From positions 1 to 56,587 of the IMG/VR virus record IMGVR_UViG_3300032092_000034: 56,587 nucleotides of DNA; one strand, given 5' to 3'. The position numbers and the translations under genes are program-made. This DNA comes from a virus. Taxonomy: Duplodnaviria > Caudoviricetes. This document shows positions 2,883 to 43,900 of the stretch, one piece after another (the stretch's first letter is position 1; every line of letters begins with the position of its first letter). Below the pieces are notes generated by a model. That model was not told where the DNA came from. It did not search any database and saw only the letters and a list, made by a program, of their open reading frames with translations.

Positions 2883-3809
2883 CTACCTCCCAATGTAGGT
2901 TTGACGGGGTACGAGTCTCAAAGCTGCCTTCTCATGATCTTCGTATGCTGCTAGTTCCCAAGCTTCGTCATACTGCGTCTTGAGGAACGGAATGCGCTCT
3001 GCGCCATTGGGAATCTTTCCAGCGATGTAATACGACAGGCCAGCCGCCATACAGGGCAAGAATCTAAAAGGAACGTCCATGATATTGACACCGCCGCCTG
3101 CGTCTTGGGTACGTCGCAGCCGCCAATACACAAATTGGTATTGCTGTGCATTGTCTGGGGTAGGCCAAACGGTGATCGCGGGGACTTGTTGCCAATAAAC
3201 AGCAGTTGCACTTGTGTGGCTTGCGGCGGTTGTGTTTTGCTGACCCCGGAAACAGTTATATAGGGTGTTCCCTGAGATATAGCTGTAGTTGATGATCTCG
3301 TTGTCAATCTTTACAAAGCCAGCGGCGGGTAAGCCAACAGCAGAATTCAGCGTAATCTCGGTGTCAGTGCTTGTGATTGCGCCACTAAGGGTTAACCCTG
3401 TCGGCGAAGTTTGACCGTTGTAGCGTTGAATCCAAACCTGAATAGGTCTGGCTTGTTGAATCTTGTTGGGGATCGTAGCGTAGGTAGAAACGCTAATCCT
3501 TGTGATACTCAAGTCAGCCTGAGTTGCGGCTACGTTTGCACCCGTACGGATCACATGCTCAAGCAAGTCAATGGTGTCGTCAGGCAGGGCGTATGTGTTC
3601 TGACCCTGCACAAAGTCAATCGTGCCGGTCTCGATAGTCCACAAGTTGATGCCACGGTTTGCCCAGTCAGCAAACATAATATTCAAACTACGTCTGGCTG
3701 TACGCAGGTCATATCCGGTGCGAAGCTCACCACCGGCGCGTTCAAACGCCTCCTCTACCAACTCGGTGAGGTCTAGGTTAAAGCCACTTGCGCCGGAAGT
3801 TTGTGCCAT
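2883..3809 (-). CDS. head-to-tail adaptor (P22 gp4-like) with inserted beta domain
   Basis: ELVEEAFERAG...ARRSLN N-terminal helices, VWPTPD, and C-terminal PFRFLPCMAAGLSYYIA. Confidence 0.65.
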   Translation of the reverse strand: MAQTSGASGFNLDLTELVEEAFERAGGELRTGYDLRTARRSLNIMFADWANRGINLWTIETGTIDFVQGQNTYALPDDTIDLLEHVIRTGANVAATQADLSITRISVSTYATIPNKIQQARPIQVWIQRYNGQTSPTGLTLSGAITSTDTEITLNSAVGLPAAGFVKIDNEIINYSYISGNTLYNCFRGQQNTTAASHTSATAVYWQQVPAITVWPTPDNAQQYQFVYWRLRRTQDAGGGVNIMDVPFRFLPCMAAGLSYYIAGKIPNGAERIPFLKTQYDEAWELAAYEDHEKAALRLVPRQTYIGR

Positions 3810-4012
3810 TAAATCATCTCCGCAGTTTCATGAGCCTTTAAAAGCGCTTTTAACCGTTCAATTTCTTTGTCTCGCTCTTCAAGTTTACGCATAAGGCTGT
3901 CGTTCATATCAGCCCACATCACGACTTGTTCCATGCGCTGCTTATGATCCCTGTGCATGAGTTCAAACATGCGCTCAGACATTTCAATTTGCTTTTGGAT
4001 GAAGGTAATCAT
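3809..4012 (-). CDS. small coiled-coil hypothetical protein
   Basis: 67 aa; TAATG coupling at both ends. Confidence 0.7.
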   Translation of the reverse strand: MITFIQKQIEMSERMFELMHRDHKQRMEQVVMWADMNDSLMRKLEERDKEIERLKALLKAHETAEMI

Positions 4013-4245
4013 TATCTAAATCCTGCCGTTTTCTTTGCCACTTTGGGTGGTTGTTTTACGAATTGTTTGCCTTTAGCTTTGCCAGCACGTTTTGCGCGTG
4101 TTGTCGCAGCGTACTCAGAAGGGCTAAGGCTTTTAATTGCAGCCTCAGGAAGGTATCTTTCGCCTGTGTCAGAAGATTTTTTACCACTTTTGGTTCTCCA
4201 TTTTTGATCGCCCCAGTTTTTAAGGGAAGTCTGCGGCGCTTTCAA
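4012..4245 (-). CDS. basic protein, second half of a DUF5872-like unit
   Basis: Likely TTG start at 4245 overlapping the upstream TGA; SLKNWGDQKWRTKSGK...GERYLP...GKQFV. Family recalled from motifs. Confidence 0.65.
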   Translation of the reverse strand: MKAPQTSLKNWGDQKWRTKSGKKSSDTGERYLPEAAIKSLSPSEYAATTRAKRAGKAKGKQFVKQPPKVAKKTAGFR

Positions 4246-4520
4246 TCTCTGTACCCCCCGCCAGCAGCCTTGTACTTCTTGGCTACCAACTGAGCTTTCC
4301 TTGCTGACCACTGACCAGCACCCGTGCCATGAGTAGCTGCTGCTTTGACCTGAGACACAATCCGCTTACGCAGACTTGGTTTCGTGTAATTTCCCGCAGC
4401 ATTGACCTTGCCACCATCCGCATACATATCCACGTCTTGCGGCTTGTCCTTGCGATGGATAACCTTCTTCCCCGGCATCTTCTTGGGGTTGATTGCGCCC
4501 ATGCCACGAGAAGACATCAT
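4242..4520 (-). CDS. basic protein with YADGG motif, first half of a DUF5872-like unit
   Basis: Start at ATG 4520 (TGATG overlap); YTKPSLRKRI...GQWSARKAQLVAKKYKAAGGGY. Confidence 0.7.
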   Translation of the reverse strand: MMSSRGMGAINPKKMPGKKVIHRKDKPQDVDMYADGGKVNAAGNYTKPSLRKRIVSQVKAAATHGTGAGQWSARKAQLVAKKYKAAGGGYRD

Positions 4521-4822
4521 CAGACCATCTTCCCGCGAGTTTTGCCTTTGGTGCAGCAACCATCAGCACGGCTAGAGGCGGATGAAACCATCCCGCCTTT
4601 TTTCATTTGGGTCGCCATACTGCCTTTTTTTGCACGCTCTTCTTCGGCAGCAGCCAAAGCCTTAGATTCAGCTAAAACTTTAGCAACGGAATCTTTTTGA
4701 GCATCCTTGGCAATCATTTGAGGGAGTAAACCAATACCGCCCTGACTAGCCAATTTGCCAATCATTCCTTTACCCGAGGCAATTCCCATCACGGGACTGA
4801 GATCTTCTAAACTTATTGCCAT
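4520..4822 (-). CDS. tagged small protein (array member)
   Basis: Ends MKKGGMVSSASSRADGCCTKGKTRGKMV. Confidence 0.85.
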   Translation of the reverse strand: MAISLEDLSPVMGIASGKGMIGKLASQGGIGLLPQMIAKDAQKDSVAKVLAESKALAAAEEERAKKGSMATQMKKGGMVSSASSRADGCCTKGKTRGKMV

Positions 4823-4824
4823 GA

Positions 4825-5298
4825 TTACACCATCTTTCCGCGAGTCTTACCCTTGGTACAGCAGCCGTCAGCACGGCTGGAAGCTGTCATGCCGCCTTTG
4901 GCAAATGCTTTACCCATTTCTGTTTTGGTGGTGGGCGCAGTCTTTCTCTTCTGGTAATCTTCCTCGTCTTTTGCTTCTTGCATAGACTGCTTCTGACCTG
5001 CGGTCATTGGCTCTTCTTTACCACGAGACTCACGTTTCATCTCGCTTGCGGCTTCACGGCGATCTTGAGCGCGTTTTTCGTCACCTGCTTTAGTTGCCGT
5101 ACGGTCAGCATTACCAATTGCCGCCATAGTCCCCGCCGCTGCTAATGGAGCACCAAAACCTAAAACTGCAATTTTTTCAGCTTCGGCATCGGGGTTATAT
5201 GATTTTTTGGGTGATGATTTATACCTACCCATTCCTGCGCCAGCGCCGCCACCTTCAAGTGGGTTCAAGTCGGCGTAATGTCTTGAGTGTTTTCCCAT
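4825..5298 (-). CDS. tagged small protein (array member)
   Basis: Ends FAKGGMTASSRADGCCTKGKTRGKMV. Confidence 0.85.
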   Translation of the reverse strand: MGKHSRHYADLNPLEGGGAGAGMGRYKSSPKKSYNPDAEAEKIAVLGFGAPLAAAGTMAAIGNADRTATKAGDEKRAQDRREAASEMKRESRGKEEPMTAGQKQSMQEAKDEEDYQKRKTAPTTKTEMGKAFAKGGMTASSRADGCCTKGKTRGKMV

Positions 5299-5300
5299 GA

Positions 5301-6209
5301 TTAACAGATCCTTCCGCGAGTTTTGCCTTTAGTGGCGATGCCGTCACCACGACGCGAAGCAGTCATGCCGCCTTTACGAAAGTTTTCAGCCATACCTTTG
5401 GGGCCAGCAAGCCAAGCATTGGGGTTCAGTGTCTTTGCTTCCCGTGCGGCTTGTCTTGCAGCCAAAGCTTCTGCTGGACTCATACCTTCTGCGGCACGTC
5501 GTTCAGCTTGTGCAGCGTTGTAAGCTTTTTGTGTCCTACCCGCAGTTGACATTTCTGCGCCAATTTTTCCAAGGCCACCACCTATAGGGGTAAGTGCGGA
5601 CATGGTGTTAGAGACATTACGTCCCAGCTCTGTACTGTCAATACGTTCGCCGCCTTCAGGAGCGCGTCTGCTTTGACCGGGGATTTGATCTACAGGAGAC
5701 AACTTGGACCTACGCATTTGCGCTGCCGCTGCGCGGGAAGCGTTACTCATTGCATCTGTAGACTTTGAAGTTTGATTAGATGGTGCTGCCATTAAATCTT
5801 TACGGGCCGCTACTTTGCTCTCAACCGCCCTCAAAGAAGGCATTGGCTTGTTACCTTCAGTACGCTTGGCGTCACCACCGGGAACTGCGCGACTTGAGGT
5901 AGTAGTTGTTTTGTCTTCCGCATCAACCTTGGCTTCAGCTTTGGGCGAAGATTTCAATTTAAGATTTTTGTCGCTATCGGTCCCGCCTCCATAACCGATA
6001 TTTGAAGCCTTGTTTTTGGTAGTACCGGTGTACGAAGACTCGTTTGTGGCTTTAAAAGGCTCGTCTTTAGCCTCGACTTTTTTAGTGTCTTTGGTATAAG
6101 AACTTGTCTTCTGATCGCCAGCGTTGTCTTTGTCTTTGCCCATTTGGGACAGTTTGTACCCAAGAAAACCGAGTGCGGCTAGACCCGCTAAATCTTTTGC
6201 TTTCGCCAT
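5301..6209 (-). CDS. tagged low-complexity protein (array member, 302 aa)
   Basis: Ends FRKGGMTASRRGDGIATKGKTRGRIC; AGGAG RBS. Confidence 0.85.
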   Translation of the reverse strand: MAKAKDLAGLAALGFLGYKLSQMGKDKDNAGDQKTSSYTKDTKKVEAKDEPFKATNESSYTGTTKNKASNIGYGGGTDSDKNLKLKSSPKAEAKVDAEDKTTTTSSRAVPGGDAKRTEGNKPMPSLRAVESKVAARKDLMAAPSNQTSKSTDAMSNASRAAAAQMRRSKLSPVDQIPGQSRRAPEGGERIDSTELGRNVSNTMSALTPIGGGLGKIGAEMSTAGRTQKAYNAAQAERRAAEGMSPAEALAARQAAREAKTLNPNAWLAGPKGMAENFRKGGMTASRRGDGIATKGKTRGRIC

Positions 6210-6221
6210 GATTGGCTCCTT

Positions 6222-6593
6222 TTAGCAGCTTTTGCCGCCCTTGTTCATTTTGACCATCTTGCCTTTGGTTTTACCCTTGGCTTCGATGCCGCCGCCTTTA
6301 GCCATTTTCTTCATGCCGTCTTTGGCAGTGTCCATACCTTTTTTCATTGCAGGCTTGCCCATCTTAGAAGGCATCTCTGATTTTTTACCTGCTGCCATCT
6401 CTTTTTTCTTGGCAATCATTTCCATGAAAGGGTTTGCTTTAGCCATATCACCACCTCTTTTAAAAGTTTTGCCTTTGTCGGCGTTTGAAAATTCTTTACC
6501 CACAGACTGCGGGACTCCGGCTTTCTTGGCAAACGCTGGGTTGTGGGCCACCGCTTCCATGAAATTGTGCTGCTTCTTACTCGTGCTCGGCAT
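6222..6593 (-). CDS. tagged Lys/Met-rich protein (array member)
   Basis: Probable start MPSTSKKQHNFM at 6593; contains FKRGG, MAKGGGIEAKGKTKGKMV and MNKGG. Confidence 0.8.
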   Translation of the reverse strand: MPSTSKKQHNFMEAVAHNPAFAKKAGVPQSVGKEFSNADKGKTFKRGGDMAKANPFMEMIAKKKEMAAGKKSEMPSKMGKPAMKKGMDTAKDGMKKMAKGGGIEAKGKTKGKMVKMNKGGKSC

Positions 6594-6783
6594 CGTCGTC
6601 TTTCTTTTTACGGAACAACGTGGAGAAATCTTTGCCTGTAGCCATTTCGTAAATACGCATGGCACCCACTATTGCACCGATCAAGCCAAATACGGGCGTG
6701 AGTAAGTTTAAAAATGTACCGAGTGTAGTAAACACTGCTACGACATCTAATACATTTTTTGCGGTGTCTGTATGTTCAGTCAT
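6577..6783 (-). CDS. small membrane protein (holin-like topology)
   Basis: 68 aa; hydrophobic stretch VLDVVAVFTTLGTFLNLLTPVFGLIGAIVGAM and charged C-terminus. Confidence 0.6.
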   Translation of the reverse strand: MTEHTDTAKNVLDVVAVFTTLGTFLNLLTPVFGLIGAIVGAMRIYEMATGKDFSTLFRKKKDDDAEHE

Positions 6784-7094
6784 ACGAATCTACCCTTCGT
6801 TTTGCCTTTGGTAGCACAGCCATCTGCGCGTGAGGAGGCTGTCATGCCGCCTTTTTTAAACTTGGGTTTCCTCAACCCAATCACTTTACCCCGTGTTTCG
6901 CGTTTTACTTCATCATCCGCCTCATCTCTTGCAGATTTTATTGACTCTAACTTATCCTCCCGAGAAGTTTTAGGGTCAAGAACTGTGTTGTAATATTTTT
7001 TTTCGCCCGCGTGTTCGCCAATTTTAGTTTTTGCTAGGCTAAGTTCTTCAGACGTACGGTCTTTAAAATCCGGGAATGATAGTTTTTTAGCCAT
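6780..7094 (-). CDS. tagged small protein (array member)
   Basis: Ends FKKGGMTASSRADGCATKGKTKGRFV. Confidence 0.85.
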   Translation of the reverse strand: MAKKLSFPDFKDRTSEELSLAKTKIGEHAGEKKYYNTVLDPKTSREDKLESIKSARDEADDEVKRETRGKVIGLRKPKFKKGGMTASSRADGCATKGKTKGRFV

Positions 7095-7418
7095 TTACAC
7101 AAACCTACCCTTCGTTTTGCCTTTGGTAGCGCAACCATCAGCTTTGGTGACGTAGCCGCCTTCAGCGCAGTTCCATGCACGGAGGCTCTTGTTAATCCTC
7201 GAATCTGGATCCCTTGCGGTTTCGGCGCTCGTCAATTTCGCTTTCATCCCTTTCATACGGGCGCAGAAAGAGTCTCGCCTGCTGCCGCCTTGGGGCTGCG
7301 GAGCTTTTAACCCCGGTTTCCCGGGATTCGCTGCGTTGTAAGAAGCCCGTCCTTTGGCGTTCAGCCCGCCTTTCGGATTCTTCCCTTCTTTGCGCGTCCA
7401 TGCTGGGGATTTAGCCAT
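7095..7418 (-). CDS. DUF6321-like basic protein with appended tag (array member)
   Basis: GGLNAKGRASY...RRDSFCARM...SRINKSLRAWNC (family recalled from motifs) followed by AEGGYVTKADGCATKGKTKGRFV. Confidence 0.8.
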   Translation of the reverse strand: MAKSPAWTRKEGKNPKGGLNAKGRASYNAANPGKPGLKAPQPQGGSRRDSFCARMKGMKAKLTSAETARDPDSRINKSLRAWNCAEGGYVTKADGCATKGKTKGRFV

Positions 7419-7701
7419 AAAATGTCGTCACTTTAGCTACATTGGGGGCCGTGCCGGGTAGCGTCACATGAATGTCTGTCTCGAACAAAATGCCTTCGCC
7501 GGGAATGAGCAATGAAACGGGTTGTGTACCTGTACCAATATTAAATTGCAACCTCACAGTACCGGAAGCACCGCCGTCACGAAAAATAATATCCCCCGCT
7601 GTTCCACCAGAAATGCAATGATATGCCTTGAGGCGGTTGCGCCCCGATACCACTGTACCTGTCGCTTCTACGTGCGCGGATTTAACGTCTGTCTGCATCA
7701 T
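7411..7701 (-). CDS. small virion structural protein
   Basis: beta-rich ~96 aa ending IPGEGILF...VTTFYG; AGGAG RBS; start codon uncertain (7698/7701). Confidence 0.6.
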   Translation of the reverse strand: MMQTDVKSAHVEATGTVVSGRNRLKAYHCISGGTAGDIIFRDGGASGTVRLQFNIGTGTQPVSLLIPGEGILFETDIHVTLPGTAPNVAKVTTFYG

Positions 7702-7745
7702 AATCAATCTCCTGTTATTAGGGGGCCGAAGCCCCCTTGGGTTGA

Positions 7746-8267
7746 TTAAGCTGTACGAGAGAACACGTAAGCTGTGGCACTAGAGAACATGATAGTGAAA
7801 CGAGCAAGTCCTGTTACGCCAGAAGGTACTGTCAACAGACCTGCGCCAGCACCTGAACCGGCGGCGGCGGCGGCAGACAAGATGCCGTTAGTTGCCACAG
7901 CAATTGTTACTGTGTTTGCGCCAGCGGTGTTGTCAACAAACAAGTCCAGCGTAGTGCCGCGAGTTGCACCAATAGCAGTACCAAGGTCTGTGCCGGTAGG
8001 CAAGGTGATGGTTGTGGCTGCTGCGGAGGTTGAAGTGATGTAGCCTGTAGCAACTTCTGCTGCGGTGGCTGTAGCCGTTGCGTTGATAGCAGCGGTTGAT
8101 GGATGATTTATATCGGTAAAGACCAGATTTGTGGCTGTTAAATTGGTTACGCTAGTGGTAACACCAAGAGTAGAAGTCGTAGTGACTGCGCCAGTGGTTG
8201 AGTTGATAGAAACAGTCTCAAAACCGTTCTGCGATCTTACTGGGCCGCTAAATGTACTATTTGCCAT
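7746..8267 (-). CDS. virion structural protein (head decoration/fibre-like)
   Basis: MANSTFSGPVRSQNGF N-terminus; Ala/Thr-rich; TITLPT motif. Confidence 0.65.
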   Translation of the reverse strand: MANSTFSGPVRSQNGFETVSINSTTGAVTTTSTLGVTTSVTNLTATNLVFTDINHPSTAAINATATATAAEVATGYITSTSAAATTITLPTGTDLGTAIGATRGTTLDLFVDNTAGANTVTIAVATNGILSAAAAAGSGAGAGLLTVPSGVTGLARFTIMFSSATAYVFSRTA

Positions 8268-8383: not shown

Positions 8384-8755
8384 ATGCCGTACAAAGACCA
8401 AACCAAAAGAAAAGAAAAACAACAGGAATATTCCAAAAAATACTACGCTGACAATACGCAAAAGGTCAAAGACACCACTAGAAAAACAGACGCCACCTTC
8501 AAGAAAAAATGGAAGGAATTTAAGGCCACTCTGTCATGTCTTGAATGTGAGGTTAGCCATCCGGCGGTTTTAGATTTTCACCACATAGACCCGGAAATGA
8601 AGAACGCCAGCGTTCATACACTTGTAAAGGCTAAAAGTTACAGAAAAGCACTGGAAGAAGTGCAGCAGTGCGTAGTGTTGTGTTCAAACTGCCACAGGGT
8701 TCACCACTATAACGAACACCAAGCCAAAAAAATGGGGGCCAAAGCCCCCACTTAA
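8384..8755 (+). CDS. HNH endonuclease
   Basis: CLEC...LDFHHIDP...CVVLCSNCHRVHH zinc-binding HNH motif; antisense to the late operon. Confidence 0.85.
   Translation: MPYKDQTKRKEKQQEYSKKYYADNTQKVKDTTRKTDATFKKKWKEFKATLSCLECEVSHPAVLDFHHIDPEMKNASVHTLVKAKSYRKALEEVQQCVVLCSNCHRVHHYNEHQAKKMGAKAPT
8726..8751 (-). terminator. intrinsic terminator after acidic gene
   Basis: GTGGGGGC-TTTG-GCCCCCAT-TTTTTT on minus strand. Confidence 0.75.
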
Positions 8756-9244: not shown

Positions 9245-10156
9245 TCATGCCGAACCGGGGGAACCGTACATTCCCAATGGATCAGACCAACCGAAGCTGT
9301 AACGCTCGCGGGCTTTGTAACGGACGTTGCCGGTATCAAAGTCACCGTCCATGCTGTTAGCAAGGGGTGAACGAACAAAGTGCTTCAGACCGTTAGGCAC
9401 ATCAGTAGTCAAATACCAGCCATTTGTGTCGGTCAGGTAATGGTTAATGGTGTAGCCTTCAGGGATAGAGCCGTTGTTCTTCAATGCGTTGATGTCGTTG
9501 TCGGTAGTGCCAACGCGGAGGTTGGTTTCCAACAGGCGGGTAGCCACGAACTGCAATGCAGGGGGAACAATCAGCTTCTTGGGCTTAGCGGCAATTAACA
9601 AACCACGCTCGTCTGTCCATGCAGCGATCTGAATAACAGCGTTTTCCAACGAAGTTTCATTCAAGTCAGCAGCAGTGGCGGGACGGTTGGAGTTAGTGCC
9701 ACCAGAAACCAAGGGGTGAGCAGTGCTAAACAAAGCAACGCCGTCGCCACCGGGATAAGCGGCAGAGAAACCGTTGTTCAGAGTAGCAGCAGCTTTAACC
9801 TGCTTGGTGTAAGCCATAGCACGAGCCAGACCTTTGGTGTAACGAGCAGACAAGCTGTCGTACAAGTTATCTTCAATCGCTTCTTCAGTGATCGAGAAAC
9901 CCAAAGCAATGGTTTCGTGGTTGTAGCGGGTAGTCCATGCCTCTTGTGCGTTGTCATAAGCGATGGCAGAACCTTCGTTTTTGACGGGTGCAGCTGAGAA
10001 GCCAGACAGTTTGGTCTCTTCCTCAAAAGAACGCTCTGAGGTTTCGGTTTCATAAATTTCTTTATGTTCTTCACCGTAACGAGCGTACTCCATACCAAAC
10101 AAAGCGTTCAGGCCGGGTAAGAGTTCTTTAAGCAGTTGTGCGCGTGAAATAGCCAT
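9245..10156 (-). CDS. major capsid protein
   Basis: 303 aa; MAISRAQLLKELLPGLNALFG, KLIVPPALQF, YKARERYSFGWSDP; position after scaffold; terminator follows. Confidence 0.9.
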   Translation of the reverse strand: MAISRAQLLKELLPGLNALFGMEYARYGEEHKEIYETETSERSFEEETKLSGFSAAPVKNEGSAIAYDNAQEAWTTRYNHETIALGFSITEEAIEDNLYDSLSARYTKGLARAMAYTKQVKAAATLNNGFSAAYPGGDGVALFSTAHPLVSGGTNSNRPATAADLNETSLENAVIQIAAWTDERGLLIAAKPKKLIVPPALQFVATRLLETNLRVGTTDNDINALKNNGSIPEGYTINHYLTDTNGWYLTTDVPNGLKHFVRSPLANSMDGDFDTGNVRYKARERYSFGWSDPLGMYGSPGSA

Positions 10157-10168
10157 TTAAGTAACTCC

Positions 10169-11002
10169 TTATGCGCCAGTGGCGGAATAGTAGCCATGCA
10201 GACCTTGGTTCAACTTAACCAAGACTTCAGGATACTGAGTGAAAATCACAGTCGATGTGTAAACACCAGAGTTCAATGTGAATGTGGCGGCTTGGTTCAG
10301 CACAACAGAAGTTGCGCCTGCTGCGGCTGCGGTATCAACAAAAGAACCTGTCTGTGCAATTTGACCGTTTGTGGTCAACACAGAAACGTCTGTACCAACT
10401 GGCAAGGCGAAAGGCAAAGCACTGACGGTCAAGGTAGTTGTACCTGTACTGTAAGTGGCTGTACCCAACGAAACTGCTGTGTCGGCAACGACACCAACCA
10501 TGCGCAAAGGCAAAGTAGTAGTGACGGGAGTATCCACAGGAGCCAAAACTGCGTTAGCAGAATTACCAGTGGCTGTGCTGCCAGTGTTGTTGATGGCTGA
10601 CAGGTTAGTGCCAATCATCGCCAAAGCGCCGGAAGCAATGGTAGTGCCAGAAGAACAAACAACAGCCTTGAACACAGCATCGGGATCGTCCAACACATAA
10701 GCTTGGCAATCACCGGCAGCGGTGCTTGCGGGCCAGTATTGGCTGAATTGCTTTTGCTTTGTTACGGGGCTAGTGAATGTGCAACCCAAGAAAATACCGG
10801 TAGTCTGGTTCAAACCAGTGCCAGTAGAAACTGAGGCGCGTGTGGCAAAGCCACGGGATAGAACAACAAAGTCACCATAGAAGATGTCGGTCGCATAACC
10901 GTACTGGATGGGGTACATGCGAGTAGAACCCGCAAATACTTGACCACCAATCAAGTTTTGTGCCAACAGCCCGTATGGAGCTGATACGACGGGATAAGCC
11001 AT
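10169..11002 (-). CDS. capsid-associated (cement/decoration) protein
   Basis: Between scaffold region and MCP; IFYGDFV, GIFLGC, AYVLDDPDAVF motifs. Confidence 0.65.
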   Translation of the reverse strand: MAYPVVSAPYGLLAQNLIGGQVFAGSTRMYPIQYGYATDIFYGDFVVLSRGFATRASVSTGTGLNQTTGIFLGCTFTSPVTKQKQFSQYWPASTAAGDCQAYVLDDPDAVFKAVVCSSGTTIASGALAMIGTNLSAINNTGSTATGNSANAVLAPVDTPVTTTLPLRMVGVVADTAVSLGTATYSTGTTTLTVSALPFALPVGTDVSVLTTNGQIAQTGSFVDTAAAAGATSVVLNQAATFTLNSGVYTSTVIFTQYPEVLVKLNQGLHGYYSATGA

Positions 11003-11023: not shown

Positions 11024-11503
11024 TTATGTACCTGTTCCAAATGTTACTTTGGACGATCTTTCCGCGAATTTTGACATTCGTGGGTCATTGTCTTTCATGT
11101 AGGTGTTGTCCACCGAATCCATTTGCGCTTTGTTTATCTTGGCAAAGTGAGCATCACGTTGTTGCATAAACTCGGCTGGGATACGGCAAAGTACTAACCC
11201 ACCAACTTCAACATTTCCTTTAAAGCGTCCGTCAACGGAAGCGTGCATCATGAGTTCTGGATAATCTTCTGCTTTGCAGGGTTCATATCCCTCACGTAAC
11301 TTAGAAGAGATGTTTGATGGATCACTATTACCCAGTACGCTAGTACGGATCCAACGATGTGTCCAACCGGGCCTATCGTCGGGTGAAGGTAAAGCCTCTG
11401 GCGCTTGCCATGATGTTGGTCGTCGTATCTCTTGGCGAGTGTCCAACGCACGATCTAGGCGATTTTGCGGTTTTCCAGCTTTATTGACTTCAGTGTTTTC
11501 CAT
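11024..11503 (-). CDS. conserved head-module hypothetical protein
   Basis: HRWIRTS...KLREGYEP...VGGLVLCRIP; position in head operon. Confidence 0.7.
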   Translation of the reverse strand: MENTEVNKAGKPQNRLDRALDTRQEIRRPTSWQAPEALPSPDDRPGWTHRWIRTSVLGNSDPSNISSKLREGYEPCKAEDYPELMMHASVDGRFKGNVEVGGLVLCRIPAEFMQQRDAHFAKINKAQMDSVDNTYMKDNDPRMSKFAERSSKVTFGTGT

Positions 11504-11506
11504 TTT

Positions 11507-12502
11507 TTATCCTTTTCTAAGTAAAGCAACCTGTTTAGCATATTCTTCGATGGGCACCCCAAGGCGACGCGCAGTGGCGGCTTCTGATGCTTTTAAACGA
11601 ATACGGCTAGGTGGAGTACTACGCGAGGCCGGAGCCACAGGCGAAGTATTTCTTGTTGCACGGCGTGGAGTATCTTCATATTCCTCTTCCGGTTCTGACG
11701 CCCTTTTCTTAGGAGGCGGATCGTCTTCCTCGTAGCTCTGGTCACTCTCAAAGTGCTCAGGAAATCTTTTGCGCATCGTTTTGTCGATGGTTTTGAAGTA
11801 CTCTTCAGTACCTACATAGTCCGCACCATACTCTTTCTGCAACTTTCTGTCAATACCCATTGCAGACATAGTCATTTCGTCGTCAATACCCCACCAGTCG
11901 CTGTTGCGCTCAACCCACTTTTTAGTGCGAGGTGGCATACGTGGAGCTTCTTCTGCCTCACGCGCGGGGGGCTGGTATTCTTTCTCCTCATTCTTAATTG
12001 GCCTCATGCCTTCAGCACGGTCAATCTTGAGGGTAGCTCTAGCAATCGCTTCTTGCGCTGCAACAATTGAGTCTGGATCAGCAGCTTCGTACGCTTTTTT
12101 GTACTTCTCTTTGGCGGCGTCTAACTCAATTTGAGCAGCGGATTTGGACTGCTCAATGTAAGCTTCGCTGCCTGTAGAGAGCTGTTGTTGTAAGCGTTTG
12201 TTTTCTGCAAACACCTGTTTGGCAAATTCCTCCGCAGCTTCACGTTCCCGCAGAGCTTGCTCTTTTGCGCGGCGTTCATCGTGATATCCACGGGTGAACT
12301 TCTTAATTCGTTTTTGGACCTTCTCGTCGTAGGATGCTAACTCTTCATCAGTTACTTCCTCAACAGGCTCCTTCATGGGCTTGCGACCACGATCTTCCTC
12401 TGGGGTGTCGTCTTCAATCTCAACTTCAAATTTCTCTTCAGCAGCTTTTTCTGCTTTCTCGTCGGGAAACTCGTAAGTCTCTTCAAACTTTGGTAACGGC
12501 AT
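11507..12502 (-). CDS. capsid scaffolding protein
   Basis: Acidic coiled coil with C-terminal ARRLGVPIEEYAKQ helix; between portal and MCP. Confidence 0.75.
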   Translation of the reverse strand: MPLPKFEETYEFPDEKAEKAAEEKFEVEIEDDTPEEDRGRKPMKEPVEEVTDEELASYDEKVQKRIKKFTRGYHDERRAKEQALREREAAEEFAKQVFAENKRLQQQLSTGSEAYIEQSKSAAQIELDAAKEKYKKAYEAADPDSIVAAQEAIARATLKIDRAEGMRPIKNEEKEYQPPAREAEEAPRMPPRTKKWVERNSDWWGIDDEMTMSAMGIDRKLQKEYGADYVGTEEYFKTIDKTMRKRFPEHFESDQSYEEDDPPPKKRASEPEEEYEDTPRRATRNTSPVAPASRSTPPSRIRLKASEAATARRLGVPIEEYAKQVALLRKG

Positions 12503-13110: not shown

Positions 13111-15603
13111 TTACTGTCCTTTATTTGGTGGTTTGCCAGTGTTTTGCGCAGCTCTCTGCGCGGCTTGCTGTACGGCTAATTGAGCGCGATGTTTAGCAGC
13201 GTCAATCCCTAAACGCATTCCTTCAGTCTCTTGTTGTCTTGCTGCTTTATCTTTGTTTGCAGCTGCCTGTGCGCCGACCTGCATAGCAGCAATTTCTTTT
13301 TGAGCCGCGATACGCGCTTCTTCAATACGAATCTGATCTGCCTTTGCCGCAGCATCAATCTGTTGCTTCTGCTGTTTAAGCTGCAACTCGCCTTGTTTGA
13401 TCTGCAACTCCTGCATCTGCATCTGGACCAATGGGTCCTGCATCTGTTGTTGAGCCTGCTGCTGTTGAGCTTCTTGTTGGTTCTGCTGAAGAATCTGTTG
13501 AGCCGCTTGCGCTGCCATAACAGCAATTTGATCCGCCTGTTCAGGAGTGATCTTCTTGTTATTTTCTTCACCGGGCAACGACATGCCCATACGCATCTCG
13601 ATTTGTTTACGGTACTCAAGCGCCATATGCTCGTTGATGTGAGCCATAGCCGCCGCCATAATCACCTGCGCCTGTGGATTCATCTGCATCATCTGCTGAA
13701 TCTTGGGATCTTGAATCGCTGCCATATGCACTTGGATGTGAGCTTGATGGTTCTGCTCGATGAACGCCTTGACGGGCTTCATAGTCAACAAGTCTTGGTT
13801 CTCTTGCACTGGGTCTGTTGGCACTTCATCATCTTCAGTCTTGACTAACTTGTCTGCGTTCTTAACGCCAAGCACTTCAATCATCTGACGGTGCAATAGA
13901 GACATGTCATACAACTGCGGAGCTTGTTGAGCCAACTGCATAACAGCTTGGTACTGCACAATTTTTTGTGCCATTGTTGCCGCGTTTGGATCACTGACAG
14001 GGATAACTTCTGTGCTGTCGTAATCCGATTTCTTGGCTTTACGGCCTGCGTCTACAGGCTCATAGTCGTACTCCTCGGGCGTATAGTCAGCGATGATGAT
14101 TTTCAAAAGTTTGAACTCTTGTTTCATCGTGAAGTGAATACGAGCTTGAACTGCCCCCATCACTTTTAACTGTCGCTCTAACAACGCAAGCGTTGTACCG
14201 ACTGGAGCCTGCGCGCTCATATCCGACACATTCATATCACCACTTGATGCGAATGCGCGGCCTTCTTCTACTATGTTCTGGAAAAGGGCAAACAGGACCT
14301 GACTTGGCTCCTTGTATGGAAGTGGTAATATGTTGTCACGGATGCTTCCTGAAGGCACATCTACGTCTCTAAATTCTCCGGGTTGGATTGGGGTGTCGTC
14401 TCCCTTAATGCGTAAGCCGCGAGATTTAAGACCTCCGGGTAAGTTAGACAGCGTGCCAGCATCAACGAGCTGTCGGATGAGCATCGTAGCCGATTTCGCA
14501 TATCCCCCGATAAGGTGGATAAGACCGTAACCATAGAAGCCAAAACCGGGGATGTACTGGTAGTGGACAAAGTGCTGTCGTTTGTTGTGAAGTTCGTCGT
14601 CTTCATACCAATTTCTCCTAATAGCTAAAACTTTGTTTGTGCTTTTTTCTACGGTGACTACGTATGGCAGTGCTATCCCAGTGGGTTTACCTTTTTTGTC
14701 TTTATGTTCAAACCCAGCCAAGTCCAAGTCAACGTGCATCTCCAACAGCCGGAAACGGTCGTCGTTAATAGCTGACATGCCCTGCTCTTCAGCTTTCTGC
14801 TTCTCAATATCATCCAACTCATGTGTTGGCTCGCCTAAGTCCACGTCGATGTAAAACCCAGCTTCTTGTAACTTCTTAATCTCGTTCTCGGTCTTACGCA
14901 TGACGTGTGTTACGCGTTCTGCCGTCTCCAAATTACTTGCCCCATACGGCACAACAATGTCTTCTGCTGGAATAAACACCGCGACCTGACGGCCCTTGCT
15001 CGGGTCATAGTAGACTTTCTTAAACGCTGAACCTGCAAGAGGCAATGACCACAAGAGCTTTTCATGCTCAGGACGATACTCAGTCATCACTTCGGTCAAC
15101 TGATAGTTCATATCATCTTGTACACGTATGGCAGCTTCTTCTGTATCGCGTGTCTCTTCACCAATAATTTTTGTCTTGACTGGACCCATTGCTGGGAACG
15201 TTTCCATAATCCCTTCTGCTTGAAAGCGTACAACGCTCTCTGTCAACATAGGGTGGAATACACCACAAGCGCCCTGCCAAGGTTCTGTTCTATCTTCGTA
15301 ATTCAAACCCAGCAACTTCAGACCATCAACATAAGTTTTGATCCAATCCTTGCGGTCCATTATGTCTTTGCCAAAGTCTTCAACTAATTCTGACCCAAGC
15401 GAATCTAAGTCGCCCTCGTCCATGTATTCGGCGAGATTGGCATCAAAGTCTTCTGCTGTTTCTTTGCGGGGCTTTAAATCAATCTCAATGTCGCCAAGGC
15501 CAATATTGACTGACTCAGGATCTTCAATTTCGATCTCAATAGGAGCATCCATTTCTTGTTCCATACCAAGAGGGGCTGCGTACAAACCTTTTTCTATTGC
15601 CAT
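13111..15603 (-). CDS. portal protein
   Basis: 830 aa after terL; LPLAGSAFKKVYYD, GFYGYGLIHLIG, Gln-rich C-terminal barrel as in P22-like portals. Confidence 0.9.
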   Translation of the reverse strand: MAIEKGLYAAPLGMEQEMDAPIEIEIEDPESVNIGLGDIEIDLKPRKETAEDFDANLAEYMDEGDLDSLGSELVEDFGKDIMDRKDWIKTYVDGLKLLGLNYEDRTEPWQGACGVFHPMLTESVVRFQAEGIMETFPAMGPVKTKIIGEETRDTEEAAIRVQDDMNYQLTEVMTEYRPEHEKLLWSLPLAGSAFKKVYYDPSKGRQVAVFIPAEDIVVPYGASNLETAERVTHVMRKTENEIKKLQEAGFYIDVDLGEPTHELDDIEKQKAEEQGMSAINDDRFRLLEMHVDLDLAGFEHKDKKGKPTGIALPYVVTVEKSTNKVLAIRRNWYEDDELHNKRQHFVHYQYIPGFGFYGYGLIHLIGGYAKSATMLIRQLVDAGTLSNLPGGLKSRGLRIKGDDTPIQPGEFRDVDVPSGSIRDNILPLPYKEPSQVLFALFQNIVEEGRAFASSGDMNVSDMSAQAPVGTTLALLERQLKVMGAVQARIHFTMKQEFKLLKIIIADYTPEEYDYEPVDAGRKAKKSDYDSTEVIPVSDPNAATMAQKIVQYQAVMQLAQQAPQLYDMSLLHRQMIEVLGVKNADKLVKTEDDEVPTDPVQENQDLLTMKPVKAFIEQNHQAHIQVHMAAIQDPKIQQMMQMNPQAQVIMAAAMAHINEHMALEYRKQIEMRMGMSLPGEENNKKITPEQADQIAVMAAQAAQQILQQNQQEAQQQQAQQQMQDPLVQMQMQELQIKQGELQLKQQKQQIDAAAKADQIRIEEARIAAQKEIAAMQVGAQAAANKDKAARQQETEGMRLGIDAAKHRAQLAVQQAAQRAAQNTGKPPNKGQ

Positions 15604-15612
15604 GATGTGTCC

Positions 15613-17130
15613 TTACACAGTGTAGTACCGCTCTGCGCGGCGACTTTTAAAATATTGAATTTCATCAGGTTCATCGCTTGGTAACCTAATAAAACCCCCC
15701 TGACGAAAGCGTGCTAGAGCTTGTGTGGTTGAGTCAACCAAGTCATCGTTTGTACCGCTTGGAAAGTCGTTACATTCTTCAATCACTTCTCTTGCCCATC
15801 TGCGGTCCGGTGCCCATACCATCCCTGAAGAGAACAAATCAGAGACAGCATTTACACGAGAGATCTTATCCTGTCCTTTACCCGGAGTAAACTCTCCTAC
15901 AGGCACGCCCATACGCCTAAACTCTTGGTACAGCGCCGCGCCGTTAGACTTCTTCTCCACTACAAAAGCGTCCGGCTCCCAATCCTTGTACTCCTCCAGC
16001 ACCATCTTTTTAAGGTCCGGAAACTCCATACGTTTCTTTATGGCGTTGAGCAAAATTATGTTGTAGTTCTTAGACTCTTCGTTGAAGAAGACACCCCATG
16101 TGGTCAGGGCGTTGTAGTCAGACCTGTTGTTTGTCTCTTGGGCAGCGTCCAAGCTCATGATGATGAACTCGCAGTTGGGAGGCGGTTTGTCCTGATCCCA
16201 TATCTGCCACCACTCCCTCTTTATCAGTGCGCCTTCTTCTGATACGGGGTTCTGCATATACTGGGCTTCCCAGTAACGCACGTCCATACCAGCCTTTTTG
16301 GACAGTAATTCCTCAATAGTCCAGAACTCACCCCACAAGGGTTTCTCGTTCAAAATGGCAGGAAATTCAACAATCTCCCAGTCATCTACGCCCTCTTCTC
16401 GGGCCATCTGGCTAACTATCTGACCAGTCAAATCCAGCTTGGACCAACGAGTCATCACAATGATGATTGCACCGCCAGGCATAAGACGCTGGAGAGGACC
16501 AGATTGAAACCACTCCCAAGCAGGAAGAAAGACATCGGGTCGTCCAGTTTTAGCTTCTTGCTCAGAATGAGGATCATCAATAATAAATAGATCAGCGCCG
16601 CGACCTGCCAAAGCACCGCCAACACCAATAGCAAAGTATTCGCCATTTGAATTTGTCCCCCACCTTGATGCAGATTTGCTGTCTGATTGCAGCTCTACGT
16701 CCGCAAAAATGTCTTTATAGTTATCTGAACCCACAAGATTACGAACGCGGCGACCAAAATTAACAGCCAAATCTGCTGTGTGAGACGCCATAATGACCTT
16801 CTTATGGGGGAATTTGCCCAAAAACCATGCTGGCGCAAGATAGGAAATGAGTTCAGACTTGCCATGTCGAGGCGCAATATTAACGATGACACGCTTTTTC
16901 TTTCCGTTGGCGATGTCTTCAAAGATTTTAGCGAGCCTACGATGATGCGGACCAACTTTATAGCCCGGGTATACATGATCTGCGAACTCCAAAAGTGATT
17001 CTTTGCCCAAATTCTGCACGGATTGGGCATCCCATACCTTAATTAGCTCAAGAATCTTGCGTTTTTCATCATTTGACGCTGTCGGCAACAGGTTTTTTAG
17101 GGTTTCGATCTGTTCTCGTGTAACTTTCAC
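15613..17130 (-). CDS. terL: terminase large subunit
   Basis: Walker A APRHGKS, Walker B IIDDP, coupling motif MTRW, nuclease DDLVDS. Confidence 0.95.
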   Translation of the reverse strand: MKVTREQIETLKNLLPTASNDEKRKILELIKVWDAQSVQNLGKESLLEFADHVYPGYKVGPHHRRLAKIFEDIANGKKKRVIVNIAPRHGKSELISYLAPAWFLGKFPHKKVIMASHTADLAVNFGRRVRNLVGSDNYKDIFADVELQSDSKSASRWGTNSNGEYFAIGVGGALAGRGADLFIIDDPHSEQEAKTGRPDVFLPAWEWFQSGPLQRLMPGGAIIIVMTRWSKLDLTGQIVSQMAREEGVDDWEIVEFPAILNEKPLWGEFWTIEELLSKKAGMDVRYWEAQYMQNPVSEEGALIKREWWQIWDQDKPPPNCEFIIMSLDAAQETNNRSDYNALTTWGVFFNEESKNYNIILLNAIKKRMEFPDLKKMVLEEYKDWEPDAFVVEKKSNGAALYQEFRRMGVPVGEFTPGKGQDKISRVNAVSDLFSSGMVWAPDRRWAREVIEECNDFPSGTNDDLVDSTTQALARFRQGGFIRLPSDEPDEIQYFKSRRAERYYTV

Positions 17131-40755: not shown

Positions 40756-40951
40756 GCCCTACGACGAGCCAGTATGGTTGTTCCCCTATCCAGCGATGCT
40801 GGTGGGGGATAGCTTCTTTATACCGACTATGAAGCCTGCGTACTTGACGTATGCGGCTGATAACGCCGCAAAGAAAAGTGAAGTGAAAGTAAAAATACAC
40901 ACCGTCACTGAAGACGGTGTTCTTGGTATACGTGTTTGGCGCGTGTCTTAG
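40730..40951 (+). CDS. small hypothetical protein
   Basis: FPY..MLVGDSFFIP...GIRVWRV; last plus-strand gene. Confidence 0.7.
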   Translation: MKKLSSASKPYDEPVWLFPYPAMLVGDSFFIPTMKPAYLTYAADNAAKKSEVKVKIHTVTEDGVLGIRVWRVS

Positions 40952-43900
40952 GGTTTGACGTCAAGCGTATCAAAGGCTTCAACGAGTCTGTGTTTAACCA
41001 AGCTTGACATGTCGTTAAGCTGTTTGAGCTGTTCTTTGCGCTCCATGATGGTTAAATCTTTATTTGCGCGAACTTGATTTGCCATAGTACGAATATTGCG
41101 TAGTGTCCCATTTACTTGCATGTTGTAGAACTGTACAGCAGAATAGGCATTGGGGTTGTCCTCCATAAATTTTTCCAATTGCTCTGGGCGGTCTCTAAGC
41201 GAATTGATGCGCTGCTCCATCTTCTTGACTTGCTTCTCAATGCTACTAAATTCACGGGCATCAATGTTTGATTTAGACCCAATAAAGCTACTGAGGAACA
41301 CCATGTCGTTCTTTGGATCAAACTCTTTTGCCCCAGCCACAGTCAAGCCTACGTTTGTCGCACTTGAAGCCATCTTTGCAATACCGTCAAAGTAGTTGCT
41401 GGCAAAAAAGTACATTGTGTTTGGACTCCAATCCACCGCGCCATTAGTTGCATCAAACAATTCTCTAGCGGCTTTCTTGTACATCTCAGGAATGTTATCC
41501 CCACCAGTGTACGCATCGCCAAACCGCGACTGACGATTGTTATATATCTGACGCCCCAGACCATCCAAGTTCATCACATACTCAAAGAACGGACGGAATG
41601 CAGATGGCGTTACTGAGTCCATTGCAAACGCTGGGAAGTTGTCTATTGGACTGATGCGCGATACCGGCAGCGGCATGAATGAGTCAGCTCCTGTAACCAC
41701 GATGTTTCCAAACGCGTCAAGTAGAGACGTCCTGCCAGATGCAACAGACGCTATCTGCGCGCCAGCAGATGCAAATGCGCCAAGACCAAAGCCCCAAGGG
41801 ATCTGAATAATTATGTCTGTGCCGGGTATATGGAATCGCGCATAGCGAGTCCAACGTGCCATATCGTCCGTGACGACTTTGTTGCGACCTAAGTCATCAT
41901 CCTCTGCCATCATCAACGCCATATAGTACATAGCTACGCCTGTACCAATTAGTCCTGTGGACATATACCGCGCATTAGTTTGGCGTTGTTTAAGTTCTTT
42001 TACGGCGTTGTCAATCTGCTCTTCAGTACGACCCTGCGCAGCAGCTTCTTCTCTAAAGTTTGCTTCGTTAAAACCAAACGCTGGAGCCAACGCTTCAATC
42101 GCTCTAACTGCGCCTGTGGCAGCTGGACGGAAGAACATAAACAATGCGCCAGCACCCTTGCCCCAACGACCGACCTGCTCAAAGTTGGCTAGGTTCTTGG
42201 CATACTCAACTGCTTGAGACTTAGCGTCAGCCAGCGCATCAGCATCGTTTTTAAATTTACCGCTTGATTTATTCTCGGCAAAGAATTGATCCTTCAACAT
42301 ACGATACGTAGCAGCACGGCTAGACAATTCAAACATGTCGTTATAGATGTCAATGAACTTGTCTACCTGATCTTTCTTTTGCAGGATGCCACTGCGTCCA
42401 ACTTCTTTTATCAGTCCATCAAGCGCACCCTTGGCAGCAAGACCTTGCAGGTATGACACCTTGCCACCTAACTGTATATAGTCAAGCAGGTCAGCGTAGT
42501 ATTGGTCTTTGGCGGCAAGCTCTTTTAGTTTGTCAAATTTACCGTTCGCATACAGGTTAGAAAACTTAATTGACTTGTACATGCCACCACCAGCCACATC
42601 CGCAGCAACAGCAGTCAGCAACTGCCCAGCTTTGGTTGGGCCAAATTCAGCACCAAGCGTAAAGGCATTAGTCAACGCATCGCGCACAAAGTTCATTGGC
42701 GCAAACGCTGGGTTATACCGTGTGTGCATTTGCCCGATACCACTTGTAATTGCGTTAGCAATCTCGATTAATGGTTGCGTTGTTCTGTATGAACGTCGAA
42801 TAGCTTCGCGTTGTTTTGGATCATTCAGTTCAATGATGTCTACTGTTCCATCGGCGTTGTAATGGAATATTTTGTTGTCTCCGCCAATGTCTTTCTTTTC
42901 AACATTGTTTAGGAAACGATCTTCAAACTTAATAGGGTCTTTGCTGACTTTACCAATAAGTAATTTGTCTCTTACAGCATTCTTAATTGACAGAGTCAAG
43001 TCTTTACGTCCAGCACGCATAGCAGCAGACGCACCATCCGCAAGGGATTGGAGTAATGGATTCTCAGACTCTGACTCTCGACCACTAAAAGGATTTTGGC
43101 CTTCCTGCAAGTCACCGCCAATACGTCGTGAATCAATGTTGAACTCTTCGTCAATCTGCCTAAAGCCGGGACGTCCTTTGAACGGCACATAGTTTTGGAA
43201 GTTATAGAAGTCAATTACGTTTGACGCAGGTTGAGAGTGGTAGTTAGCCATCTTGTTCAGTGTCTGTGTCAGTTGATTGACTTTACGCAGGGATTCCACC
43301 ACCGCATCAACTTCTTTTTCTGTCTCGGGTGTTACGCGCTCTTTAAGGATTGCTGCAATTTGTCGCGGTGTACGGTTTGCAATGACGTTGTACATTGCAT
43401 TGTTTTGGTTAAACATTTCAGGCGCAGTTGGTTTACCGTTTATCTGTTTTGCATGAAATGTCTTATCGTCAACAACTTGATCCAGCATGGCGCGTAGGTC
43501 AAGCGCGCGCTCTTTGCGCTTTTGATCCAACTCGTTGATTTGGTCCTGCGTCATGTCTTCTGTGACTGCGTAAGACGGTTGCGCCAACTCACGCATTATT
43601 GCTTCTCTAAAACCTTCAGCAGAATATTCTTTGCCTTCAAACTTAATACGCTTGCTATCATTTTCAAGCGGCACTGTCTTTATGTATTTGACCCGACGAC
43701 GTTCAGGCTCGTGACGCGCTTCCAAAATAATGTGCAGGCGTGCAAGTGCTTCTTTGATTGTCAGACCAGATTTTTTCGCATACGCTTCTACCGCAGCATG
43801 AGTTTCTTCAGTTGCATTACGTAGATACTCGTCATACAAATTGACAGCCATACCAGCAGAACGCGTAATTTGCCCATACACATTGTTCAGATCAGGCCCA

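Follow-up and report, generated by a model that had tools for sequence, protein, structure and literature searches.

A shared C-terminal peptide on variable basic proteins of a phage head-gene module: a possible procapsid-incorporation signal

The window analyzed in this work is the whole of IMG/VR record IMGVR_UViG_3300032092_000034, a linear phage sequence of 56,587 bases with an estimated completeness of 89%. On its minus strand, between the gene for its major capsid protein (MCP) and that for a head-tail adaptor-like protein, lies an array of six small genes whose products end in versions of one peptide of about 25 residues, referred to below as the tag. An earlier reading of the DNA letters alone (the sequence-only reading) had described six packed open reading frames (ORFs) at 4520-7418. 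All six exist where it placed them, and encode proteins of 107, 104, 123, 302, 157 and 100 residues (genes 1 to 6). Genes of the window lie on the minus strand unless stated otherwise.

The tagged genes and their common C-terminus

Five of the six proteins end in [FM]xKGG..(S)AS.R[AG]DG[CI][AC]TKGKT[KR]G[KR]xx, in agreement with the shared tag that had been proposed, and in all five the stop codon stands exactly 3 residues past GKT[KR]G. Alignment of the five C-termini over 33 residues leaves G11, G12, D20, G21, T24, K25, G26, K27, T28 and G30 invariant. A regular-expression search of the 56.6-kb window in six frames found the core [KR]G[KRH]T[KR]G at these six places only. A hidden Markov model (HMM) of the tag recognized the five window copies with E values of 4e-21 to 1e-18, the sixth at 0.29, and nothing else in the record. 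The sixth copy, at the end of 6222-6593, had been taken for a shortened form. The AS.RADG stretch is indeed missing (GGGIEAKGKTKG), but the tag is not simply shortened, as 12 residues follow the core (...KMVKMNKGGKSC, then the stop). This extended variant (GGGIEAKGKTKGKMVKMNKGGKSC up to the stop) occurs nearly unchanged in other contigs, for example L003, L004, L046, L064 and L068.

Across a wider set of sequences the consensus reads [FYM]xxGG-x(2-5)-AS-x-R-[AG]-D-G-[CI]-A-x-[KR]-G-K-T-[KR]-G-[KR]-[MFI]-[VC]-COOH over about 25 residues. Numbered back from the C-terminus, 277 unique canonical tags show no variation at G(-13), G(-8), T(-6) and G(-4), and D(-14), K(-7), A(-11) and R(-16) are kept in 98%, 97%, 94% and 92% of them, respectively. 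At positions -9, -5 and -3, K and R replace each other freely, and the two final positions are occupied by hydrophobic residues or Cys. The protein ends exactly 3 residues past the core in 130 of 137 and 117 of 120 database proteins among the matches listed. For 275 of 308 canonical tags, the distance from the stop to the next start codon is between -7 and +3 nt, which amounts to translational coupling; the last tag codons are purine-rich and serve at the same time as the region where ribosomes would bind for the following gene. No family in Pfam, NCBIfam or PHROGs covers the tag itself, and its profile matched no solved structure among the PDB sequences. The PDB chains named 'Bagel' and 'Cell surface protein' were rejected as relatives, being matched only weakly (E 0.025-1.8) through 'GG..SS'. 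The ESM Atlas returned unnamed viral clusters only, and literature searches with tag strings returned unrelated papers only.

The remaining parts of the proteins, here called bodies, differ from gene to gene. Gene 1 (7095-7418) encodes a complete DUF6321 domain (Pfam, 69.3 bits against a cutoff of 28.5 bits, profile positions 1-72 of 72, residues 12-82), followed by the tag AEGGYVTKADGCATKGKTKGRFV with its codons at about 7098-7166. An AlphaFold2 (AF2) model built from 95 sequences displays a helical domain with a predicted local distance difference test score (pLDDT) of 60-80, while tag residues 88-107 score below 50 and are not packed on the DUF6321 domain. The start codon of gene 2 (6780-7094) comes immediately after the gene 1 stop; its charged body has no match in Pfam, PHROG or NCBIfam, and its tag is FKKGGMTASSRADGCATKGKTKGRFV (about 6783-6860). 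Gene 3 (6222-6593) is taken to begin at the ATG at 6593, which gives 123 residues, the longest ORF starting from a GTG at 6665. Its N-terminal module, which we take to be DUF3008-like, matches phrog_16759 (E 4e-21); it also resembles the N-termini of two PHROGs annotated as 'virion structural protein', phrog_22033 and phrog_25121, and the protein closes with the extended tag variant MAKGGGIEAKGKTKGKMVKMNKGGKSC (about 6225-6305). Gene 4 (5301-6209) combines an N-terminal hydrophobic helix (MAKAKDLAGLAALGFLGY), a long low-complexity body and the tag FRKGGMTASRRGDGIATKGKTRGRIC (about 5304-5381). In gene 5 (4825-5298) a Gly/Ala-rich hydrophobic segment, with a 19-residue Kyte-Doolittle mean of 1.82 at residues 43-61, precedes a charged body and the tag FAKGGMTASSRADGCCTKGKTRGKMV (about 4828-4905). 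Gene 6 (4520-4822) carries an N-terminal MxIxLxDxSP..G..SGKG module and the tag MKKGGMVSSASSRADGCCTKGKTRGKMV (about 4523-4606). The four window proteins without a recognizable module have no PHROG match.

The sequence-only reading considered the N-termini dissimilar, and no pair among the six gave a BLASTP match at E<=1e-3; the claim nevertheless needs qualification, as 6780-7094 and 4825-5298 share a short E[MV]KRE[ST]RG module that is traced via intermediates. Other short modules recur across contigs (MGIxLGDxSP..G.ISGKG, KKQ..FM.A.AHNP.FAKK.G and a KHE..HKG box). Clustering of 205 N-terminal parts resulted in 89 clusters by a stricter procedure, which was used instead of an unmasked single-linkage clustering that lumped 121 bodies. 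The basic character described earlier is general. The six window proteins have isoelectric points (pI) of 9.6-10.5 and net charges of +7 to +21, and all 210 tagged ORFs compared have a pI above 9, with a median net charge of +16, whereas the MCP, portal, scaffold and adaptor are acidic. Of the two cargo types that the sequence-only reading had in mind, DNA condensers fit this composition better. Enzyme-type anti-defence effectors find no support in domain content: a Pfam domain was found in only 2 of 150 tagged proteins (the longest of 257 retrieved), both of them DUFs (DUF6496 and DUF6321), and none contained an enzyme domain. The bodies of 275 tagged ORFs are enriched in another short motif, [FYM]xxGG, after which V, I or T often stands (170 observed against 36 +/- 5.5 in shuffled sequences). 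At least one extra copy occurs in 115 of the 275 proteins, within the first 20 residues in 37, and the motif is also present in untagged relatives (YADGGKV in 4242-4559, GFKRGGDV in HTVC023P gp43).

The DUF6321 family provides a view of the tag as a separate piece. It had been remarked that the tag of gene 1 follows a seemingly complete domain ending in WNC, as if appended, and this is what the comparison supports: the full profile comes first, and the homologues HTVC023P gp43, a DSL-LC04 protein and HTVC115P gp68 stop at W[NK]C. A full-length tag match in HTVC115P was discarded as read-through past the stop, since the protein ends at WNC. Among complete DUF6321 orthologues in related contigs, 18 of 118 are tagged and 100 untagged, and the tag is attached to three different modules (DUF6321, DUF6496 and DUF3008-like). 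The tag behaves as a modular, separable add-on that has been gained or lost on DUF6321 orthologues. In HTVC115P and in the T4-like P-HM2, DUF6321 belongs to a morphogenesis module. In the latter, a Prochlorococcus phage (L191, 4347-5240), it forms the C-terminal domain of a 297-residue protein whose gene is flanked by those of the small and the large terminase; with tblastn the family was detected in 528 cultured phage records, mostly of cyanophages. A DUF6321 model (pLDDT 66) gave a best Z of 3.7 in a wide VIA search, which is uninformative. No paper naming DUF6321, DUF3008, DUF6496, PF19846 or PF20106 was found in the literature searches, and a paper on DUF5872 (the Chrysochromulina parva virus genome) proved unrelated.

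Two oddities among the retrieved sequences concern the edges of tagged ORFs. An ORF with an Acyl_transf_3 domain that ends in the tag (L186) was rejected as a real fusion. It lies on a 75% GC contig of a metagenome-assembled genome (MAG) with a phage-like island of only about 140 nt at 7985-8125, in which the tag is followed by a typical array-gene start (MATKRFNTGG), and is a probable assembly chimera. Two database proteins (P0001 and P0007) read through tag ends as ...GKMCQEN.M..., joining neighboring array genes, and look as if the gene caller of the source had rendered a stop codon as Q.

Selection on the tag and turnover of the bodies

The sequence-only reading had pointed out that many DNA differences between the closest tag copies are synonymous. 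The counts agree with it: over the last 15 codons, 7095-7418 and 6780-7094 differ by 6 synonymous and 0 non-synonymous changes, and 4825-5298 and 4520-4822 by 8 and 0. For all ten pairs of window tags, the proportions of synonymous (pS) and non-synonymous (pN) differences over these codons are 0.69 and 0.19, and the 24 codons directly upstream of the tag end are 22-43% identical in DNA between copies, which is about random. Mean pairwise identity of the proteins is 0.69 over the last 15 residues against 0.08 in a control block of the bodies. Synonymous sites are thus near saturation and replacements few, which argues that the peptide itself is under selection and that the copies are old. Judged from their sequences, the window copies are neither recent duplicates nor conversion tracts.

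A comparison with the closest relatives reveals how fast the rest of the array changes. The array flanks are 85-87% identical in DNA, and within the array alignment is limited to islands of about 70-90 nt, located at the ends that encode the tag. Three window tagged genes, 6780-7094 and 5301-6209 included, align at the DNA level over at least 60% of the gene in 0 of 155 loci, against 71 of 155 for the MCP gene. The bodies that can be aligned are under purifying selection, with pN/pS values of 0.23-0.46 against 0.32 for the adaptor, all of these being upper bounds as synonymous sites are saturated. The pattern would be consistent with cassette exchange by recombination at the tag DNA.

Spread and gene neighborhood

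The tag is widespread. Pattern scans of IMG/VR returned at least 604 stretches, at least 557 of them confirmed, and a scan for the DGIAQRG-type variant returned at least 626, with at least 589 confirmed. In a collection of 5.8 billion proteins, at least 6,548 tag matches at E<=1e-3 were obtained among 8,000 candidates scored, and a library of 1.84 billion representatives (50% identity clusters) contained at least 8,569 at the same threshold, 772 of them at E<=1e-10. A genome collection gave 23 matches, all on phage-like contigs of the same clade that had been binned into MAGs of many phyla; the bin labels suggest lakes for the tag-bearing clade. Among 50,697 cultured phage records, a tblastn search with the 33-residue tag hit 3 at E 0.8, namely Pag-Yong1, MinM2 and Pra-JY27. 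These cyanophages, with one tagged protein each, that of Pag-Yong1 being UMO75986.1, are the only cultured carriers found. No paper on Pag-Yong1 appeared among the literature matches listed. Wherever the genomic context can be seen, the tag is confined to one phage clade.

The related loci carry 1-5 tag copies each on variable bodies, the six of the window forming the largest array seen. In all loci with enough flank the gene order on one strand is the same: scaffold, g11024, g10169, MCP, (g7746), g7411, 1-5 tagged genes, g4242, g4012 and adaptor. In a few loci a tagged gene lies just beyond g4012 or the adaptor. When loci were fetched by their MCP alone, 34 contained both MCP and adaptor, and 33 of these had 1-4 tags between the two; a single tag was present in 14 of the 34. 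The 34th locus has undergone rearrangement and bears a tag on the opposite strand. In one MCP-selected contig (L205, 2500-4397) an HNH gene follows the MCP gene, and the strand opposite to them encodes the adaptor, a g4242-like protein and a protein with the extended tag, as the result of either an inversion or a misassembly.

The array is embedded in a conserved structural module. The MCP gene (9245-10156; Pfam Phage_capsid_4, E 5e-15) marks the upstream boundary of the module. Its product is 76-99% identical across 60 related loci compared, mostly 84-97%, against about 39% for the scaffold and about 64% for the portal. A search for MCP homologues matched 8,000 of 8,000 candidates, all at least 96% identical, and did not deepen the alignment. 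By MCP, the nearest cultured relatives are two phages at 71%, Pag-Yong1 of Planktothrix and MinM2 of Synechococcus, followed by Pelagibacter phage HTVC023P (64%), DSL-LC04 (62%) and Roseobacter phages CRP-901 and CRP-902 (56%). Two small beta-rich proteins (g7746, 7746-8267, and g7411, 7411-7707) are encoded between MCP and array. An HNH endonuclease gene on the plus strand (8384-8755; phrog_3106, E 1.5e-26) separates the MCP gene from these head-decoration-like genes and is probably a mobile insertion, with DNA-level matches in only 3 of 155 related loci. Within the array, an untagged hydrophobic membrane-like protein of 68 residues (6577-6783), whose start overlaps the gene 2 stop, is matched by tblastn in 6 of 80 loci and by no Pfam family above its cutoff.

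Two untagged, conserved basic proteins come next. The first, g4242 (4242-4559; phrog_17747, E 1e-22), closes the array; it combines a YADGGKV box with a GQWSARKAQ domain and has tblastn matches in 64 of 80 loci; its true start is likely the ATG at 4518-4520, which overlaps the gene 6 stop, as conservation begins at residue 14. The second, g4012 (4012-4311; phrog_14910, E 6e-34), has an uncertain start and is matched in 51 of 80 loci. The head-tail adaptor-like protein at 2883-3809, which sets the downstream boundary, was assigned by Pfam SU10_adaptor (E 3e-6, 28.3 bits against a 27-bit cutoff) and is matched in 67 of 80 loci.

Upstream of the MCP gene, the large terminase (15613-17130) and the portal (13111-15603) are followed by a GroES-like gene, which precedes a putative scaffolding protein (11507-12502; 331 residues, net charge -14, phrog_28737). 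The latter is named from position and composition. It is conserved to about 40% overall, with a strongly conserved acidic patch at residues ~28-46 (IEDDTPEEDRGR.P), a possible docking site for basic partners. The families of g11024 (11024-11503) and g10169 (10169-11002) were not recognized. An AF2 model of g11024 (pLDDT 76) gave no Foldseek match to the PDB below E 0.7, which offers no basis for calling this protein a protease or anything else. No prohead protease family was recognized among the 60 ORFs scanned with PHROGs, which is weak evidence of absence. Two large virion proteins are encoded elsewhere: a 2030-residue protein (40948-47040), weakly similar to N4-type virion RNA polymerases (phrog_2206, E 2e-10, residues 757-992), and an 842-residue protein (47044-49572) that matches 'DNA ejection protein' (phrog_4287, E 4e-23). 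A regular-expression scan found the tag core in neither.

Candidate functions of the tag

The architecture proposed by the sequence-only reading, a constant C-terminal peptide on bodies that are variable, basic and for the most part disordered, encoded by a hypervariable array within the head module, withstood the comparison. The tag is the only feature common to the variable proteins; it stands at the very end, is flexible, and equals the MCP in conservation. Together with the precedent of phage T4 described below, this leads us to read it, with a rough probability of 0.4, as a C-terminal, probably uncleaved procapsid-incorporation peptide for polycationic head proteins that remain internal or are ejected. 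Proteins of the head interior have no way of entering behind the DNA by the portal channel, and must therefore be in the procapsid beforehand. The tag would act as a portable docking signal, by which small polycationic disordered proteins would enter the podophage procapsid before DNA packaging, to remain there as DNA-associated internal head proteins and probably to be ejected. Unstructured alone, it would fold on a conserved receptor, for which the inner face of the MCP and the putative scaffold are the best candidates. As no prohead protease was recognized, the tag is probably not removed. The array would be a fast-turnover locus where bodies come and go or are exchanged, the tag alone staying constant.

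Position lends support to this reading. The tagged genes lie on the MCP strand, in the interval from MCP-(g7746/g7411) to g4242-g4012-adaptor, and are coupled to structural genes. The PHROGs matched by the gene 3 module, the morphogenesis context of DUF6321 and the presence of polymerase-like and ejection proteins may also count toward a role in the virion. Membrane-like segments would fit ejection proteins; they occur in 4825-5298 (residues 43-61), in 5301-6209 (the N-terminal helix) and in the protein at 6577-6783. The strong positive charge fits contact with DNA. Virion location, receptor binding and ejection are what we infer. A complex prediction, in which the alignments comprised 61 rows for the MCP, 42 for the putative scaffold and 117 for the tag, scored 0.00 in a run without controls and counts neither way.

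The closest parallel is found in T4. Its internal proteins IPI-III and Alt are highly diverse, small, mostly basic head-internal proteins from a variable locus that have only a short conserved targeting peptide in common (PMC3012670; PMC7411985). This capsid targeting sequence (CTS) is described as an N-terminal peptide of ~10-20 residues; it attaches to the scaffolding core, and the gp21 protease removes it (PMC7411985). The combination of a constant peptide with variable small proteins is the same here, as seen in the tag and body identities and in the 89 body clusters. By contrast, the tag is C-terminal, about 25 residues long and without sequence likeness to the CTS; no prohead protease is recognized, the phage is a podovirus, and packaging is presumed. 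The best reading by analogy is that the tag system works like the internal-protein/CTS system of T4 without being a member of it.

Other short targeting peptides are less similar. The HK97 protease has a C-terminal targeting region. For the SPN3US prohead protease gp245, a C-terminal segment has been proposed to carry the protein into the prohead (PMC7411985). Such regions belong to one enzyme per phage and are removed, and unlike the tag are not common to an array of unrelated proteins. Encapsulin cargo peptides resemble the tag in being short, disordered C-terminal peptides on unrelated cargo; the tag array lies 1.8 kb from the MCP gene, and the tag of gene 1 is modelled at a pLDDT below 50. 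The encapsulin peptide binds the inner face of an HK97-fold shell, a fold that Phage_capsid_4 proteins presumably have. Encapsulin cargoes are enzymes, and their peptide motif differs from the tag. The KGG repeat, which we take to be Pfam PF10685 of YciG-type stress proteins, is likewise rich in Lys and Gly, hydrophilic and marked by KGG boxes, and one tagged protein (P0025) was automatically named 'general stress protein YciG'. The phage tag differs in its extra RADG..GKTKG half and its terminal position, and PF10685 matched neither the six window proteins at E<=0.1 nor 150 tagged proteins at E<=1e-4.

Several observations weigh against an incorporation signal. At least one body can do without the tag, most DUF6321 orthologues being untagged, and the conserved basic neighbors g4242 and g4012 are untagged as well; the tag is therefore not needed for membership of the array, and perhaps not for packaging. 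In relatives with a similar MCP, no tag was seen in the 18.9-kb locus of HTVC023P by a regular-expression scan, nor among the translated MCP-to-adaptor genes of DSL-LC04 and CRP-902. The available part of a genomics paper on HTVC023P-type phages does not mention the locus (PMC9599517). In some database proteins the tag is internal or doubled. The fixed 3-residue register could partly reflect dual coding, as the G-[KR] codons (GGN ARR) occupy the Shine-Dalgarno position of the downstream gene. The placement of the tagged proteins in the virion and the candidate receptors are, moreover, deductions from sequence.

The tag could instead be the working end of these proteins, a free-standing Walker-A-like Gly/Lys loop that grips DNA phosphates and anchors polycations on the packaged genome for condensation, charge neutralization or co-ejection, head entry being achieved by other means. 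The most invariant positions, G(-13), G(-8), K(-7) and T(-6), spell GxxxxGKT, with little or no variation at D(-14) and G(-4) either, and all tagged proteins are strongly basic. Lys -7 stays fixed while its basic neighbors exchange, as expected of a phosphate-loop lysine. The motif GxxxxGK[ST] is shared with P-loop nucleoside triphosphatases (NTPases), but just 5 residues remain after GKT, the loop has no hydrophobic stretch before it, and the strand-loop-helix frame and the Rossmann-like setting with a Walker B that mark those enzymes are missing, the region having a pLDDT below 50; no NTPase family in Pfam or NCBIfam matched the tagged proteins. DNA binding also leaves the fixed distance to the C-terminus and the conserved hydrophobic last two residues unexplained, and GxxxxGKT in a Gly/Lys-rich peptide could be a coincidence. 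We consider this account unlikely, though a serious competitor. A stronger form of it appears decidedly doubtful: that the tag is a natural bare P-loop of ~25 residues without an NTPase domain, clamping fast-evolving disordered polycations on the packaged genome and maybe serving as a head-entry ticket as well. If true, an abundant phage clade would possess a histone-like system for organizing DNA, and no smaller natural P-loop element would be known.

It is about equally doubtful that the tags associate with each other, pairing or bundling through a disulfide or a metal at their single Cys, or by stacking of beta-hairpins, into a mixed internal core. One Cys tends to be kept per tag, as 4 of 78 DGC tags end in Cys against 21 of 52 DGI tags; several tagged proteins occur together in most genomes, and [FYM]xxGG boxes are enriched in the bodies. 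These Cys counts are, however, uncorrected for shared ancestry, 18 of the 52 DGI tags have V as their final residue and so lack Cys at both positions, and the MCP-selected loci with a single tag imply that hetero-association is not required. Two further accounts fit the data less well. The tag, an extreme C-terminal, disordered and basic short peptide, might direct late proteins that are not virion cargo to a host or phage hub (nucleoid, ribosome, protease or membrane machinery) or lead passage through the tail, and some bodies have membrane-like segments, such as that of gene 5. We hold this to be improbable given the invariant position inside the head-to-adaptor module, the translational coupling to structural genes, and the restriction to one phage clade whose MAG bins span many phyla with no visible host link. 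Very improbable, finally, are plain tandem paralogues whose shared end is ancestral, has no role as a peptide and is kept mainly as the translation-initiation region of the next gene; plain tandem paralogues are the case that the sequence-only reading had named as refuting its own. The close spacing of start codons and purine-rich last codons would suit it, as would the short modules common to some bodies. Yet amino acids are kept over about 24 codons at near-saturated synonymous sites, far beyond a ribosome-binding site, the bodies belong to different domain families (DUF6321, DUF6496, DUF3008-like), the six show no mutual BLAST similarity, and the tag is gained or lost within one orthologue set.

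The clade is abundant enough to saturate both protein searches, that for the MCP (8,000 of 8,000) and that for the tag (at least 8,569 tagged clusters), and the cultured carriers Pag-Yong1, MinM2 and Pra-JY27 make the question directly testable. Should the tag bind DNA instead, the finding would bear on the organization of packed phage DNA and on minimal phosphate-binding peptides. If incorporation is its function, the principle of a constant address on variable internal proteins is already known from T4; the peptide, the end of the protein that bears it, the absent processing and the phage group would be new. It would then be the first shared, C-terminal and uncleaved 'address' for head-internal proteins, would offer a simple handle for loading foreign proteins into capsids, and would explain the fast turnover of this locus inside a very conserved structural module.

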